A stretch of DNA of 64,000 nucleotides from the NCBI GenBank assembly GCA_009699575.1, contig WLNY01000001.1, positions 2,211-66,210 of the forward strand. Reading direction: 5' to 3'. Each line of letters begins with the position of its first letter. The stretch's first letter is position 1. The DNA is from Actinomycetota bacterium (GTDB taxonomy: Bacteria; Actinomycetota; Actinomycetes; Nanopelagicales; Nanopelagicaceae). The notes under the pieces were generated by a model. It worked only from the letters and a program-made list of their open reading frames with translations, was not told where the DNA came from and ran no database searches. Below are positions 40,082-45,811 of the stretch, piece by piece. A program made the position numbers and the translations under genes.

Positions 40082-40107
40082 GGATTACTACGCACTATGA
40101 TTAGTTG

Positions 40108-41091
40108 ATGGCCCAATTGAATCGAGCATTTTTTCGGTTTTTTAGAACCGAAAGCGCAGGGGGTATTTTTCTCCTCGCCTTCGCGTTCCTGGCCCTGATT
40201 CTTGCAAACTCACCAATTCGCCAAGGATATTTTGATTTCTTTGATCCCCTACACACCTTTATTAATGAAGGCTTGATGAGTATCTTCTTTTTTCTCGTTG
40301 GGCTCGAAATAAAACGTGAATTCGTGAGCAAGGAGGAGCGATCCTATAGATCTATCTCCTTGCCCATCATTGCAGCTCTTGGAGGTATGGCAATACCCGC
40401 GCTGATTTTCATTGTTTTAAACAATGGCTCAAAAGCGTGGGCGGTCGCTATGCCAACAGATATCGCGTTAGCTCTTGGAGCACTTGCCTTGCTTGGTTCG
40501 CGTATTGAGCCAAGTATCAAAATCTTCTTGCTCACTCTTGCGATAGCCGATGATTTATTTTCTATTATTGTGATGGCACTTTTTTATTCATCAGGAATTA
40601 ATCCATTAAAGCTTCTCGCAACTATCGGAGCCGTTGTTCTGGCTATTGCTATTCCAGTGAAACCTGATCGACTGATAGATATCCTTCATCCCTATAGTGC
40701 ATTCTTTATCATTCCGGTCTTCGCACTTGCTAACATTGGACTCACTATTGATTTTTCGAACATTTCAAACGCCATCACCTACTCACTTATTGTTGCTCGA
40801 GTGGTAGGAAAAATTATCGGCATAACTCTCTTTAGTTTCTTAGCCATTTCTTTTGGACTTTCCCATAAGCCAGCTTCGCTCACCTATGTCGAGATTGCAG
40901 GAGCTGGCGCACTCGCAGGGATGGGCCTTACTGTTTCACTCTTTATCGCAGACCTAGCAGGTCTGGCACCAAATCAAATGTCGGATGTAAAACTTGGTCT
41001 CATTCTTGCTGCCATAGTATCTGGATTAGTTGGGTTATTCATCCTGCGTCGCTGCGCTGCCAATCCGTTTGCTGTTCACGACGAAAATTAA
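40108..41091 (+). CDS. nhaA: Na+/H+ antiporter NhaA (short form)
   Basis: LANSP, INEGLMSIFFFLVGLEIKRE, GGMAIPA, TDIA, LAIADDL, GKIIGI and GLTVSLFI motifs. Confidence 0.88.
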   Translation: MAQLNRAFFRFFRTESAGGIFLLAFAFLALILANSPIRQGYFDFFDPLHTFINEGLMSIFFFLVGLEIKREFVSKEERSYRSISLPIIAALGGMAIPALIFIVLNNGSKAWAVAMPTDIALALGALALLGSRIEPSIKIFLLTLAIADDLFSIIVMALFYSSGINPLKLLATIGAVVLAIAIPVKPDRLIDILHPYSAFFIIPVFALANIGLTIDFSNISNAITYSLIVARVVGKIIGITLFSFLAISFGLSHKPASLTYVEIAGAGALAGMGLTVSLFIADLAGLAPNQMSDVKLGLILAAIVSGLVGLFILRRCAANPFAVHDEN

Positions 41092-42288
41092 ATGAAGCCC
41101 GATTCCAATAATTATTCCCCAGATAAGGTCTATAAATAAAGTGGCTGCAGCTGTTGTAATCAATACCGAGGCATCTTTTTTGGTCGTTTGGAGAGACTCT
41201 CTTATTGAGGCTGGGTTTAATATTCGATAGCTTGTTCCAAGCAACACTCCTGCAATCGCAGCGGTAGGTATCTGAGAAACCAATGCCCCAGCGAATAAAG
41301 CGATAACAAGTAAAAATAGCGAGTGGAAAATAGCCGCATACTTACTGTGAGCACCTGATCGCACATTCACACTCGATCGTGCGATTGCGCCAGTGGCGGG
41401 TAGGCCTCCAAAGAGGGACGCGAAGATAGTTCCGAGGCCCTGACCAAATAATTCACGGTTGGGTTGGTACCTATCTTCCTTGGCAACGTGGGCCATTCCA
41501 TCAGCAACTCGCGCGGATAATAATGATTCAATCGCGCAGAGAGCCGCAATCATTAGAGCTGGGATAAAAAGCTCAGAGAAATGGTCAAAGGATAAAGCTG
41601 CTCCATCCCACGTACCGATACTTCGAGGAATATCTCCAATGGCGGCAATATCGAAATTCAAAATTTTTACAAGTAAAAGACTAACGAGAATTGCGATAAT
41701 GCTTGCCGGAATATGAAATGTAATTTTGAGTTTTTTCCAAAGAATCGGAAAAGTAAATTTTACGAACAGTGTGACAAAAACAATAAAAATGCTCTGAGGG
41801 CTGAGTCCTGCATGCAAGGCATCGCGAATTGTTGACAAGGCGACAGGAATCGAGCGATCTCCGGCTCCTTTCTTTATTCCGAAAACAAGTGGTAATTGCT
41901 GGAGGGCAATGACCAGTGCAATTCCGACTGTGAATCCTTCAACAACTGGCCACGGCACTCGATTGATTATGTGCCCCGCGCGAAGTAACGATAAAACAAT
42001 GACGATTACACCAGCCATGAGGCCAACCATCGGAACGATATGAATGCCAAATTTTGCAATGATTGGAATGAGAACGACTGTCATCGCGCCAGTGGGGCCG
42101 CTGACTTGAAAACGTGATCCACCAAAAAATGCTGCAATAAATCCTGCGATGATTGCTGTGGTTAGTCCTGCCGATGGCGAAGCGCCTGATGTAATTCCAA
42201 ACCCGAGGGCGAGCGGCAAGGCGACAATGGCCACACTGAGCCCAGCAACTGCATCCATCGTTAGGGATTTTCTTGGATTTACCGGCAT
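41035..42288 (-). CDS. SulP/SLC26 family anion permease lacking the STAS domain
   Basis: VALPLALGFG, GGSRFQVSGPTGAM, ESLLSA, NRELFGQG and ATGAIARS; the ORF ends right after the last TM helix. Confidence 0.88.
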   Translation of the reverse strand: MPVNPRKSLTMDAVAGLSVAIVALPLALGFGITSGASPSAGLTTAIIAGFIAAFFGGSRFQVSGPTGAMTVVLIPIIAKFGIHIVPMVGLMAGVIVIVLSLLRAGHIINRVPWPVVEGFTVGIALVIALQQLPLVFGIKKGAGDRSIPVALSTIRDALHAGLSPQSIFIVFVTLFVKFTFPILWKKLKITFHIPASIIAILVSLLLVKILNFDIAAIGDIPRSIGTWDGAALSFDHFSELFIPALMIAALCAIESLLSARVADGMAHVAKEDRYQPNRELFGQGLGTIFASLFGGLPATGAIARSSVNVRSGAHSKYAAIFHSLFLLVIALFAGALVSQIPTAAIAGVLLGTSYRILNPASIRESLQTTKKDASVLITTAAATLFIDLIWGIIIGIGLHLIFVVNSKRIGSAATQDE

Positions 42289-42371
42289 TCCAAGAGCCTA
42301 CCTTCTCGGTATTTGGTATTAACCTGTATGGAGATTTCACTTATGTGATGCTCGTTGCTAATCTTCGCCGT

Positions 42372-42488
42372 AGGTCATGAGTTTTAGCACAAAGCCCCGG
42401 CTAGCTAAACAACAACCCTCCATGGCGGCGGGGTGTTCCGGGTGAAGACCAGGTCATAGGAAAGTCCATGACAAGCGCAGAAAGGCTC
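42372..42488 (+). promoter_or_regulatory. SAM-IV riboswitch
   Basis: GGTCATGAG-TTTTAGC-ACAAAGCCCCGGCTA-GCTAAAC-AACAACCCTCC..GCGGCGGGGTGTT-CCGGGTGAAGACCAGG...CAAGCGC follows the SAM-IV consensus with compensatory changes in P2 and P3; TAATCT -10 at 42359-42364. Confidence 0.88.
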
Positions 42489-42491
42489 GAT

Positions 42492-43355
42492 ATGTCACGC
42501 TCTAAAAATACGATTATTCTCTCAACACTTTTTGCAGGAGTGCTAGCACTCAGCGCGTGCTCATCCTCAAGTGAGACGACGGATTCTGCAGCGGCGCCTA
42601 CAGAATGTGTTGCGGCTTCACTCGCAACACTAGAACCGGGAGTTCTCACAATTGCGACTGGTGAGCCTGCCTATTCTCCTTGGGTACTCAATGACAAGCC
42701 TGAATCAGGTGAAGGTTTTGAAGCTGCAGTGGCCTATGCCGTTGCAAAGGAACTTGGCTATGACAATGCAGCGGTGAAATGGGTTCGCACTACATTTGAC
42801 AGCGCGATAGCACCTGGTCCAAAGAAATTCGATTTCAATATTCAGCAGTATTCAATTACCGCAGACCGATCAAAGGTCGTTGATTTCTCAAGCGCCTACT
42901 ACAAGTCCAATCAATCAATTGTCGCTCCATCAACGAGCAAGATTGCTGGCGTCAAATCAATCGCAGAACTCAAAGCAGCGAATCCAAAACTTGGAGCAGC
43001 TGTTGGCTCAACCTCACTTGATGCAATTGAAGTCCAACTCGGTCTCAAAGCCCAAGTATTTAACGATAATGCTGCAGCCGTTTCGGCTCTAAAAAATGGA
43101 CAAATAGATGGACTCGTCGTTGATCTTCCAACTGCTTTCTACCTTTCGGCTGTAGAGGTTCCCAAGGGAATAATTGTTGGACAACTTGAAAATAGTGATG
43201 TCAATGACAATGGAGCTGGACTTCTTCTAGCTAAAGATAGCCCGATTACATCCTGCGTTACCAAGGCAGTCGACGCGCTCCGTGATAACGGAACACTTGC
43301 TGCCATCACTGATAAATGGCTGACAACAGCTGCCGGCGCACCAGTACTCAAGTAA
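42492..43355 (+). CDS. Polar amino-acid ABC transporter substrate-binding lipoprotein
   Basis: Lipobox LSAC, GVLTIATGEPAYSPW, QYSITADR, VDFS and DGLVVDLPTA; start ATG 42492. Confidence 0.9.
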   Translation: MSRSKNTIILSTLFAGVLALSACSSSSETTDSAAAPTECVAASLATLEPGVLTIATGEPAYSPWVLNDKPESGEGFEAAVAYAVAKELGYDNAAVKWVRTTFDSAIAPGPKKFDFNIQQYSITADRSKVVDFSSAYYKSNQSIVAPSTSKIAGVKSIAELKAANPKLGAAVGSTSLDAIEVQLGLKAQVFNDNAAAVSALKNGQIDGLVVDLPTAFYLSAVEVPKGIIVGQLENSDVNDNGAGLLLAKDSPITSCVTKAVDALRDNGTLAAITDKWLTTAAGAPVLK

Positions 43356-43386
43356 CCAGCACTCAAAGAATCTGATGAACCAAGAA

Positions 43387-43434
43387 GTGGGGCGCGGATC
43401 TGGCGAAGAGCCAGTTTCCGCGCCTTACTCTTTT
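43387..43434 (+). terminator. Intra-operon stem-loop after the substrate-binding gene
   Basis: GTGGGGCGCGGA-TCTGGC-gaaga-GCCAG-TT-TCCGCGCCTTAC followed by TCTTTT. Confidence 0.65.
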
Positions 43435-43440
43435 GGTGGC

Positions 43441-44286
43441 GTGTGGACGCCTAGCGAAATAGAAATCTCGCGAAGAGTGGCACGAAGGAAAAGGTCTCAA
43501 AAGAACGCACTCGTTGCACTCCTTTCTACACTTCTCGTTTTGGGAACTCTCGCAGTGATTCTTTTTACCTCTCCTGGATGGAAGAGTCTTTCAGAAACTT
43601 TCTTCGCATGGGCTTATGGAGTTGAAGTTCTTCCTAAGATTATTTTGGGTTTTGGCGCGAACATATTTCTAACCGTAATAGCTGCCTCCTCTGTAGCTAT
43701 ATTCGGATTATTAATTGCACTGGTTCGAACATCGCGTTCACCAGCGATTACACCTTTTCGCTTACTAGCCACAATTTATGTAGATGTATTTCGCGGGATT
43801 CCCATGCTTCTCATAATTCTTCTTGTGGGTTTTGGAGTACCCGCTCTTCGCCTCAAAGGTGTCACTAACAACGTTTTTATTCTTGGAATAATTGCTGTGA
43901 TAATCACATATTCGGCCTATGTAGCAGAGGTTATTAGGAGTGGAATTCTCACCGTTCACCCAAGTCAAAGAGCGGCTGCTCGTTCTCTTGGCCTCTCAAA
44001 TTTCCAGACACTTCGCTTTGTTGTATTGCCACAGGCTTTACGTCGAGTGACTCCCCCACTACTCAATGATTTGGTATCGCTAATCAAGGACACAGGGCTA
44101 GTTTCGATACTAGGTGTCACTGATGCAATTCGCGCTGCACAAATTGCAAGTAGCAGAAGTTTTAATTACACCCCTTATGTAATGGCTGCCATTCTTTTCC
44201 TCTTGATTACGATTCCACTGACCCGTTACACAGACCGCACTCTTCGAAAATCAATTGAACGACAAAATGCGCAGGGAATGGCATGA
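43441..44286 (+). CDS. Amino-acid ABC transporter permease
   Basis: DVFRGIP, YSAYVAEVIRSGI, QRAAARSLG and LIKDTGL motifs; start likely GTG 43441 after the hairpin (ORF track 43375). Confidence 0.92.
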   Translation: MWTPSEIEISRRVARRKRSQKNALVALLSTLLVLGTLAVILFTSPGWKSLSETFFAWAYGVEVLPKIILGFGANIFLTVIAASSVAIFGLLIALVRTSRSPAITPFRLLATIYVDVFRGIPMLLIILLVGFGVPALRLKGVTNNVFILGIIAVIITYSAYVAEVIRSGILTVHPSQRAAARSLGLSNFQTLRFVVLPQALRRVTPPLLNDLVSLIKDTGLVSILGVTDAIRAAQIASSRSFNYTPYVMAAILFLLITIPLTRYTDRTLRKSIERQNAQGMA

Positions 44287-45032
44287 GTATTCCAGTCTTG
44301 TCCATCGAGAAAGTGCGCAAAGCATTTGGCAACGAGGTAGTCCTCGAAGATATTTCGATATCCGTACCGGAGCACACCGCAACTGTTTTTATCGGTGCAT
44401 CGGGCTCTGGAAAATCGACATTACTACGTTGCATAAACCTTCTCGAACAAATTGACGATGGCATTATTCGCATCGATGGTACCGAAATAACCGCGGTGGA
44501 TACGGATCCAGATTTCGTTCGCCGCAAACTAGGAATGGTTTTCCAATCATTTAACCTTTTTCCACATCTGACCGTTACACAAAATATTATTCTTGCTCCG
44601 ATTCGAGTGCACAGGCAGAGTACTGAAGAGGCCACCGAACACGCACGAGCACTGCTTGAACGCTTTGGACTTCTAGATAAGGCGGATCAATACCCCGATC
44701 GCTTAAGTGGCGGTCAACAACAACGGGTGGCAATCATTCGTTCTTTGGCAATTGCCCCACGCTTGCTTCTCCTTGATGAGGTTACTTCCGCTCTCGACCC
44801 CGTATTGGTCAATGAAGTTCTGAGTACGGTAAGAGAACTCAAAATTGCAGGGATGACGATGGTGCTTGCGACACATGAAATGGGATTTGCTAAGCAAGTT
44901 GCAGATGAAGTGTGTTTTCTAGATCGCGGACGTATTGTTGAATGGGGAACGCCTGAACAGATTCTTGAGTCCCCCAAGGATCCACGGACAAAAGATTTTC
45001 TTAAACGTGTTCATGAAGCTGGACGTCTGTGA
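44283..45032 (+). CDS. Amino-acid ABC transporter ATP-binding protein (GlnQ-like)
   Basis: GASGSGKS, FQSFNLFPH, LSGGQQQR, DEVTSALDP and THEMGFA motifs. Confidence 0.95.
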   Translation: MSIPVLSIEKVRKAFGNEVVLEDISISVPEHTATVFIGASGSGKSTLLRCINLLEQIDDGIIRIDGTEITAVDTDPDFVRRKLGMVFQSFNLFPHLTVTQNIILAPIRVHRQSTEEATEHARALLERFGLLDKADQYPDRLSGGQQQRVAIIRSLAIAPRLLLLDEVTSALDPVLVNEVLSTVRELKIAGMTMVLATHEMGFAKQVADEVCFLDRGRIVEWGTPEQILESPKDPRTKDFLKRVHEAGRL

Positions 45033-45811
45033 TTTCCAGTTACCAAGTAATGCAAGGCGATCCTCTTTCTTGCGTTATTTTGCATGTGCCACACAGTTCT
45101 CGCATCATTCCAGGAGAAGTTCGCGCCAATATTGTTATTGACGATGCTGAAATAGAATCTGAACTCAACGAGATGACGGACACTAAAACTGATCAATTAG
45201 CCTTTATTGCTCAGCGACAATCCACGCTAAAACCTTGGATTTTTATGAATACTCTCTCACGTTTAGTGATAGATCCTGAGAGATTCCCTGACGAGCGTGA
45301 AGTTATGAACTCTGTCGGAATGGGTGCCGTCTACACACGAACATCTAGAGGAAATCTGTTACGTCAAGAACCTTTCACTGGAACGAACATACTCATAGAC
45401 ACCTACTTCACTCCATATTCCGATGCTTTTACCGAGCTCGTTACTTCAAGACTTGATGCTCTCGGGCGAGTGACAATAATTGATGTGCATTCGTATAGAA
45501 CCCTGCAGCACCCTAATTCGATCAATCATGACCAAGAACGTCCGGAAATTTGCATCGGAACTGATTCATTTCACACACCGGAGAATCTTATTCAGAGCGC
45601 TCAAGAAGCATGTACTGCTGTTGGCCGAACAGAACTCAACCAACCATATGCGGGAACTTACATACCTCTTAAATTTTATGGAGTTGACCCTAGGGTCCAA
45701 TCAATCATGATGGAAATACGAGCAGATACATTTGTTGACGAAAATTTGGAACTTTCCGACTCCCATACGCATGTAGCGCACGCTCTCGTATCACTTGTAA
45801 ATCTCGTTTAA
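45029..45811 (+). CDS. N-formylglutamate amidohydrolase family protein
   Basis: HVPHSS, SRLVIDPERF, IIDVHSY, RPEICIGTD, NQPYAG and MMEIR motifs; GTGA overlap with the ATPase stop. Confidence 0.85.
   Translation: MISSYQVMQGDPLSCVILHVPHSSRIIPGEVRANIVIDDAEIESELNEMTDTKTDQLAFIAQRQSTLKPWIFMNTLSRLVIDPERFPDEREVMNSVGMGAVYTRTSRGNLLRQEPFTGTNILIDTYFTPYSDAFTELVTSRLDALGRVTIIDVHSYRTLQHPNSINHDQERPEICIGTDSFHTPENLIQSAQEACTAVGRTELNQPYAGTYIPLKFYGVDPRVQSIMMEIRADTFVDENLELSDSHTHVAHALVSLVNLV

Follow-up and report, generated by a model that had tools for sequence, protein, structure and literature searches.

A SAM-IV riboswitch, a polar-amino-acid ABC importer and an FGase-family hydrolase form one operon in Nanopelagicales: a candidate route for the uptake of conjugated sulfur amino acids

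We examined an operon in a 64-kb stretch of contig WLNY01000001.1 (GenBank assembly GCA_009699575.1; hereafter, the window, meaning the whole stretch analysed), which comes from a genome of the order Nanopelagicales (acI). The operon consists of an S-adenosylmethionine (SAM)-IV riboswitch followed, on the same strand, by the genes of a polar-amino-acid ATP-binding cassette (ABC) importer and by the gene of a hydrolase of the FGase family (PF05013). Positions are those of the window unless a contig (C) or locus (L) number precedes them. Its features are the following.

42373-42483, + strand: SAM-IV riboswitch aptamer (RF00634; 94.5 bits, gathering score 38, E = 6.5e-16; full length, covering model positions 1-116)
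42480-42485, + strand: probable Shine-Dalgarno sequence GAAAGG, seen in the sequence itself, six bases before ATG 42492; it overlaps the aptamer at its 3' end
42492-43355, + strand: substrate-binding lipoprotein of family 3, polar-amino-acid type (SBP_bac_3; PF00497, 79.4 bits; lipobox LSAC)
43375-44286, + strand: ABC permease of the HEQRo 3-TM (three-transmembrane) type (PF00528, 71 bits; TIGR01726, 56.1 bits against a cut-off of 42.2)
44283-45032, + strand: ABC ATPase of the GlnQ/TcyN/HisP class (PF00005, 116 bits; best NCBIfam model GlnQ, 281.6 bits, below its cut-off of 379)
45029-45811, + strand: cytoplasmic FGase-family amidohydrolase (PF05013, 137.6 bits against a cut-off of 28.9)

The original prediction, made from the sequence alone, had described a SAM-IV aptamer and a four-gene operon in which the GTG of the hydrolase lies over the stop of the ATPase. 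The riboswitch was confirmed by cmscan, and every element of the operon was found where it had been placed. RF00634 is the sole Rfam family above threshold in the window, and the assignment holds both by score and by coverage of the full model. The element is a 5' leader before methionine/SAM genes and is conserved in relatives, with a mean column identity of 80% in an alignment with 13 other Nanopelagicales SAM-IV copies.

The three component families of a polar-amino-acid ABC importer are adjacent on one strand, and the ATPase gene starts within the end of the permease gene. The open reading frame (ORF) of the binding protein spans 42468-43355 and contains an alternative in-frame ATG at 42468, inside the aptamer; ATG 42492 is the likelier start because GAAAGG lies six bases ahead of it. 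The reading MSRSKNTIILSTLFAGVLALSAC has a signal peptide that ends in the lipobox LSAC. No NCBIfam equivalog reached its cut-off for this protein. Its AlphaFold model has a predicted local distance difference test (pLDDT) score of 90.9, and the top structural matches are amino-acid and opine binding proteins. The system is not the methionine importer MetNIQ, as the original prediction had also held: the ATPase scores 199 bits with the MetN equivalog against a cut-off of 499.7, and no protein of the NlpA/MetQ family (PF03180) was found in the genome, which is 85% complete.

The GTG of the hydrolase (45029) overlaps the TGA of the ATPase (45030-45032), and at the other end of the gene its stop codon overlaps that of a convergent SDR gene. 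We favour this GTG over ATG 45050 since homologues align from residues 2-4 onward. By family and by fold the protein belongs to the FGases: the AlphaFold model (pLDDT 87) gives template modelling (TM) scores of 0.80 to 2Q7S, at 18% identity, and 0.72 to 2ODF, and beyond the FGases themselves the closest structural matches are poly-gamma-glutamate hydrolases and zinc carboxypeptidases. Structure searches thus confirmed the folds of hydrolase and binding protein, and no ligand came out of them. With the HutG equivalog TIGR02017 the hydrolase scores 35.8 bits against a cut-off of 278.75; it is not HutG and not an enzyme of the histidine pathway. It looks like an active enzyme under selection, given 61 columns that do not vary among 24 orthologues, some of them His, Asp, Glu or Arg, and the lack of in-frame stops in the hydrolase matches of 23 carrier genomes, three of these matches being on contig fragments. 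It is presumably metal-dependent.

Distribution was assessed across 151 sampled genomes of the order, and gene order at 80 loci retrieved with the hydrolase and 32 retrieved with the binding protein, a sampling biased by the choice of these two proteins. Homologues of the binding protein are present in 108 of the 151 genomes (~70%) and the hydrolase in 23, so that most relatives run the importer without the hydrolase; within the window's own genus the hydrolase was found in 1 of 75 genomes, plus the genome studied here. In all 47 Nanopelagicales hydrolase loci with enough flanking sequence, the order is binding protein, permease, ATPase, hydrolase, with the hydrolase directly after the ATPase. 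SAM-IV lies upstream in 34 of these, and in 9 of the remaining 13 the operon is directly upstream of SAM-IV-metY-metX. SAM-IV also stands before the binding-protein gene in 14 of 32 hydrolase-less loci, other copies preceding metY-metX or metX alone. Two hydrolase-less loci, L092 and L093, are otherwise alike and read SAM-IV, importer, SAM-IV, metY, metX. At L116-L118, from the window's genus, a divergent importer (binding protein 53-56% identical) occupies the same site beside SDR and enoyl-CoA hydratase genes, again behind SAM-IV. A separate arrangement was seen in two further hydrolase-less loci of that genus (L099:4048-7028, + strand, and its mirror L098), where the importer has no SAM-IV and is followed by genes for an IF-2B/MtnA-like isomerase and for a protein that fuses a class-II aldolase to an SDR; the two look like enzymes that salvage the by-products methylthioribose or 5-deoxyribose, and would tie the transporter family to SAM metabolism in a further way.

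When 81 binding proteins were placed in a maximum-likelihood tree, those from hydrolase-bearing loci grouped in a single clade (Shimodaira-Hasegawa-like approximate likelihood ratio test, SH-aLRT, 99; 49 of 50 rows), and the hydrolase label requires two changes on the tree against a mean of 25 in shuffles. This placement in one clade indicates that the hydrolase was gained once and then co-inherited with the importer, and it has been retained across a divergence of the binding protein down to ~70% identity. Co-occurrence of the hydrolase with the riboswitch operon, which the original prediction had put up for checking, is therefore consistent in one respect (directly behind the ATPase in 47 of 47 loci, in one clade) and sporadic in another (23 of the 151 sampled genomes), which counts in part against the original prediction by the standard it had set itself. 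Within a widespread, SAM-linked importer, the hydrolase is thus an accessory of one clade.

The assembly (1.39 Mb, 49 contigs, 46% G+C) contains exactly two SAM-IV elements, one before the operon in the window and one in the leader of MetX (homoserine O-acetyltransferase). The second copy, at C48:47182-47294 (- strand; L004:7183-7295, - strand), scores 90.9 bits and has the metX ORF downstream (L004:6099-7235, - strand), followed by a sigma-70 gene and gyrB; relatives show SAM-IV-metY-metX-sigma-gyrB, and here metY lies elsewhere (C46). MetY, a MetZ-like enzyme, an enzyme of the cystathionine gamma-lyase/synthase family and CysD are also encoded. The closest hydrolase homologues carry names such as Candidatus Nanopelagicaceae, and recent horizontal transfer of the cassette into the genome is not indicated, its G+C content being 43-47% against 46% for the genome. 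Complete assimilatory sulfate reduction is reported absent from the Nanopelagicales, which need reduced sulfur (PMC12817590, PMC5301498). The sulfate adenylyltransferase subunit CysD is nevertheless present in this genome (C10:12040-12720, - strand; L090:1360-2265, - strand; 483 bits) despite this reported lack. CysK/CysM exceeds its cut-off in 147 of the 151 genomes, and because it is near-universal, a phyletic contrast is uninformative as to whether cysteine or methionine is the product. Gamma-glutamyltransferase (GGT) was not found in the 85%-complete genome.

From the overlap of the probable Shine-Dalgarno sequence with the aptamer, we infer that the operon would be controlled at the initiation of translation. 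The minimum-free-energy fold of the leader is not better than that of shuffled sequence (z = 0.45) and was not used for the mechanism. Within that fold, 42345-42368 pairs with 42476-42500, the region of the ribosome-binding site and start codon, at most a hint of an alternative structure in a fold that does no better than shuffles. No internal terminator was found in the operon, and promoter-like sites occur at the frequency seen in shuffled sequence.

Clues to the ligand come from the binding protein. Arg126 (in 'YSITADR') and Asp211 (in 'VVDLPTAFY') align with the residues that bind the alpha-carboxylate and alpha-amino groups in AncCDT-1, AncQR and GlnPQ, and both are invariant in 81 of 81 homologues, covering all clades. 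Structures of the LAO mutants R77A and D161A occur among the fold matches of the binding protein, which we take to fit the roles of the head-group Arg and Asp. The invariance of this pair suggests that the amino-acid head group of the ligand is free, and argues against N-blocked ligands such as formyl-Met or acetyl-Met.

Other positions set the hydrolase clade apart. At residue 242, the hydrolase clade has Ala in 49 of its 50 rows, against Phe in 31 of 31 rows outside it. At residue 62, Glu, Ser or Pro is found in 47 of the 50 rows, against Tyr in 19 of 19 rows of the three nearer clades; compared with the same three clades, residue 234 is Asn instead of Gly/Ser and residue 117 is Ile instead of Leu. 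The AncQR counterpart of residue 242 in the alignment is the Tyr of 'EPYG', which we assume to be the pocket position of Tyr185 in GlnBP. Residue 242 probably lies at the pocket wall, where an aromatic side chain would have been lost in the hydrolase clade; with this loss, the pocket would be larger.

We propose that the operon of this genome-streamlined freshwater actinobacterium works as follows; its components, gene order, co-inheritance and ties to the SAM regulon are shown, whereas the reaction, the ligand and the way in which the riboswitch acts are inferred. At high SAM, the SAM-IV aptamer would fold over the adjacent ribosome-binding site and translation of the operon would be off. At low SAM, the lipoprotein, permease and ATPase would bring in a compound of amino-acid type to supply the methionine/SAM pool. 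The hydrolase was recruited once, into one importer clade, and the importer of that clade would take up a bulkier, amide-conjugated sulfur amino acid in which the free alpha-amino-acid head group is kept; once in the cytoplasm, this conjugate would be split at the amide by the hydrolase, which would free the usable amino acid. A bulkier conjugate is proposed on the basis of the single recruitment together with the clade-specific loss of the aromatic at residue 242. We hold the import of an amide-conjugated sulfur amino acid and its hydrolysis in the cytoplasm, possibly of a gamma-glutamyl compound, with about even confidence. Our leading guess for the ligand is a compound of the gamma-glutamyl-Cys or gamma-glutamyl-Met type. 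Such a conjugate would fit because it has a free head group and is at the same time an N-acyl amino acid, matching the cleavage of N-acyl-amino-acid amides by the family, and one PF05013 member has been proposed, as a prediction only, to be a gamma-glutamylglycine amidohydrolase (PMC6529630). Spelled out in full, one acI clade would obtain reduced sulfur from gamma-Glu-Cys, gamma-Glu-Met or glutathione-derived compounds that phytoplankton release, via a SAM-IV-controlled importer and an FGase-family gamma-glutamyl amidohydrolase not characterised before; in this specific form the idea is speculative, and we consider it rather unlikely.

Several observations weigh against import of a conjugate followed by cleavage. 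Four hydrolase-bearing loci (L013, L015, L017 and L020) have no SAM-IV nearby, and at L015 no other riboswitch was found in its place. The hydrolase is dispensable, being missing from 128 of the 151 genomes and lost in L091 inside the clade. The pocket argument combines a sequence alignment with contacts that we presume from other proteins. Furthermore, 12 of 14 sampled Streptomyces and a few other genera, among them Nocardia and Rhodococcus, carry orthologues of ~50% identity as single copies, apart from a second weak match in a Rhodococcus genome, with neither a riboswitch nor a transporter alongside. Around these soil-actinobacterial genes, tblastx revealed no conserved neighbour, Pfam gave unrelated families or none, and no glnA-like gene was found within 7 kb. 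These stand-alone orthologues indicate that the enzyme has a role independent of the importer.

Two loci carry SAM-IV and the hydrolase with no transporter. In L019, a clean and recent deletion of 2.46 kb relative to L016 (flanks 95-96% identical) has removed the binding protein, permease and ATPase; what remains in this metagenome-assembled genome (L019:5338-6389) is SAM-IV, an 18-codon signal-peptide stub and an intact hydrolase gene. In L127 (L127:7551-8800), from a distant actinobacterium of 68% G+C, SAM-IV (64.9 bits) is followed by a 101-aa ORF and by a hydrolase gene with an ATGA overlap. This hydrolase has an in-frame TAA at codon 51 and lies in an island of helicase, HNH and Z1 genes; the 101-aa ORF matches no Pfam family and has no homologue in the other loci or in the window's genome. 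Since just 1 of the 61 genomes of this actinobacterium's family, the one with L127, has an FGase gene, the arrangement could not be confirmed in its relatives. The two loci support membership of the hydrolase in the SAM regulon weakly, and they fit an endogenous substrate equally well.

Such an endogenous substrate is the core of the strongest alternative, in which plain Met, Cys/cystine, homocysteine or cystathionine would be imported in all clades and the hydrolase would act on an N-acyl by-product made in the cell, sharing with the importer the SAM control only. The substrate could be N-acetylhomoserine, formed when the acyl group of the MetX product shifts from O to N, or else N-formyl-Met or N-acetyl-Met set free by proteolysis. 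This account draws on the stand-alone orthologues and on L019 and L127, and equally on the head-group residues, which are identical whether or not a clade has the hydrolase, on the use of the importer without the hydrolase by most relatives, and on the frequent position of the hydrolase between the importer and SAM-IV-metY-metX. It leaves unexplained, however, why the hydrolase is restricted within the order to one transporter clade and why F242A and the changes at Y62 and G234N are found in that clade alone; moreover, MetX is widespread in the examined loci, whereas the hydrolase occurs in only 23 of the 151 genomes. We consider this alternative unlikely.

The original prediction had favoured the import of N-formyl-Met or another N-acylated Met/Cys species, with a blocked alpha-amino group, and removal of the acyl group by the FGase-family enzyme. 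Its broader tie of the operon to the supply of sulfur amino acids is supported by the strong links to SAM and methionine genes (SAM-IV in 34 of 47 loci, and proximity to SAM-IV-metY-metX in 9 of the other 13), and the same linkage, the overlapping start and stop codons of the hydrolase in the operon and the founding activity of the FGase family, removal of N-formyl from an amino acid, all speak for an N-acyl ligand. The ligand itself fared less well. Asp211, the equivalent of the Asp that contacts the alpha-ammonium group in LAO, GlnBP and AncQR, is kept together with Arg126 in all 81 homologues, whereas a blocked amine would not need the Asp; hydrolase-less relatives keep the same head-group site, and nothing independent points to free formyl-Met as a nutrient here. 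An N-blocked ligand thus appears quite improbable to us.

Finally, it is very improbable that the hydrolase is a true N-formylglutamate amidohydrolase of histidine catabolism or an unrelated passenger gene behind the importer: the Pfam family name and the public-record annotation speak for the histidine pathway, and urocanase is encoded 36-55 kb away in two of the five complete hydrolase-bearing genomes, but the HutG score is far too low (35.8 bits against 278.75), urocanase was not found in the other three of these genomes, HutH and urocanase were found neither in the window, in agreement with what had originally been said of histidine-utilisation genes, nor in the whole 85%-complete genome, co-inheritance with one transporter clade is strict while the binding protein diverges to ~70% identity, and the SAM-IV association in L127 is independent.

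Upstream of the riboswitch lies a divergent gene (41035-42288, - strand) for a SulP-family permease of 417 aa with no STAS-domain hit, a neighbourhood that is kept in the relatives L014, L018, L020, L030, L032 and L037. The 3' end of this gene is overlapped by 57 bases by an NhaA-like ORF (40105-41091, + strand), which is short (328 aa) and matches Pfam in two pieces.

Nanopelagicales (acI) are the most abundant bacteria of freshwater lakes, and their route to reduced sulfur or methionine has yet to be settled (PMC12817590, PMC5301498). Through its link to SAM-IV, one ABC system, present in ~70% of the sampled genomes of the order, stands out as the candidate importer of methionine or sulfur amino acids. 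A branch of the FGase family, itself poorly characterised, that is distinct from HutG is also assigned to the SAM regulon. The single-origin clade of transporter plus hydrolase, with its probably altered pocket, and its hydrolase-less sister clade offer a comparison for how an importer adapts to a nutrient in conjugated form, and the answer could guide the design of media for isolates that are hard to grow. If the gamma-glutamyl route is true, it would provide the first physiological substrate class for this PF05013 branch and would name a sulfur-uptake path of the most abundant freshwater bacteria. In an incomplete library, which is no proof of novelty, we found no literature linking PF05013 to a SAM riboswitch or to methionine, and none on SAM-IV-controlled importers in acI bacteria; one acI genome study searched for vitamin riboswitches only (PMC5301498), and another makes no mention of riboswitches (PMC12817590).

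The operon resembles several known systems in part. The original prediction knew of no described pathway of this form, yet analogous clusters ending in deacylation exist in Bacillus subtilis, where S-alkylcysteine is salvaged by the scm/yxe, ytn and yha clusters with M20 N-acetylcysteine deacetylases (PMC12757645). As in those clusters, a sulfur amino acid would be recovered from a modified form, with an N-acyl-amino-acid amidohydrolase acting last. The B. subtilis clusters, some of which reportedly contain polar-amino-acid ABC importers, differ in having an acetyltransferase and a monooxygenase, an M20 deacetylase and no SAM-riboswitch control, in contrast to the FGase fold and SAM-IV found here; acetyltransferase, monooxygenase and M20 had no match in the four-gene operon or in the scanned neighbours, and the operon is not a cluster of this type.

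In Firmicutes, methionine importers such as MetNIQ/MetNPQ are controlled by SAM riboswitches (S-box). The common feature is a SAM-sensing leader that switches off an ABC importer supplying the methionine/SAM pool; here, by contrast, the leader is SAM-IV and not SAM-I, the transporter is of the SBP_bac_3/GlnQ-like type, and a hydrolase is attached. HutG (2Q7S, 2ODF) shares the Pfam family and the fold of the hydrolase, from which it differs by the 18% identity to 2Q7S, by an equivalog score far below the cut-off, by the missing histidine-utilisation context and by the SAM-riboswitch control. Closer to the chemistry favoured here, the cleavage of gamma-glutamyl amides, are SCO1615, a PF05013 protein of the Streptomyces ethanolamine pathway predicted to be a gamma-glutamylglycine amidohydrolase (PMC6529630, PMC9397018), and the phage and Bacillus poly-gamma-glutamate hydrolases 3A9L and 5ONJ, which have a related fold. 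The Streptomyces orthologues of the window's hydrolase differ from SCO1615 in having no glnA4-like gene nearby, and the TM scores to 3A9L and 5ONJ are only 0.42-0.46. On the transporter side, SocA (deoxyfructosyl-glutamine) and NocT (opines) are among the top structural matches of the binding protein, at identities of only 19-25%, from which no ligand can be deduced, and they illustrate that family-3 binding proteins can be retuned to larger conjugates. GshT, another protein of family 3, is said to bind glutathione.

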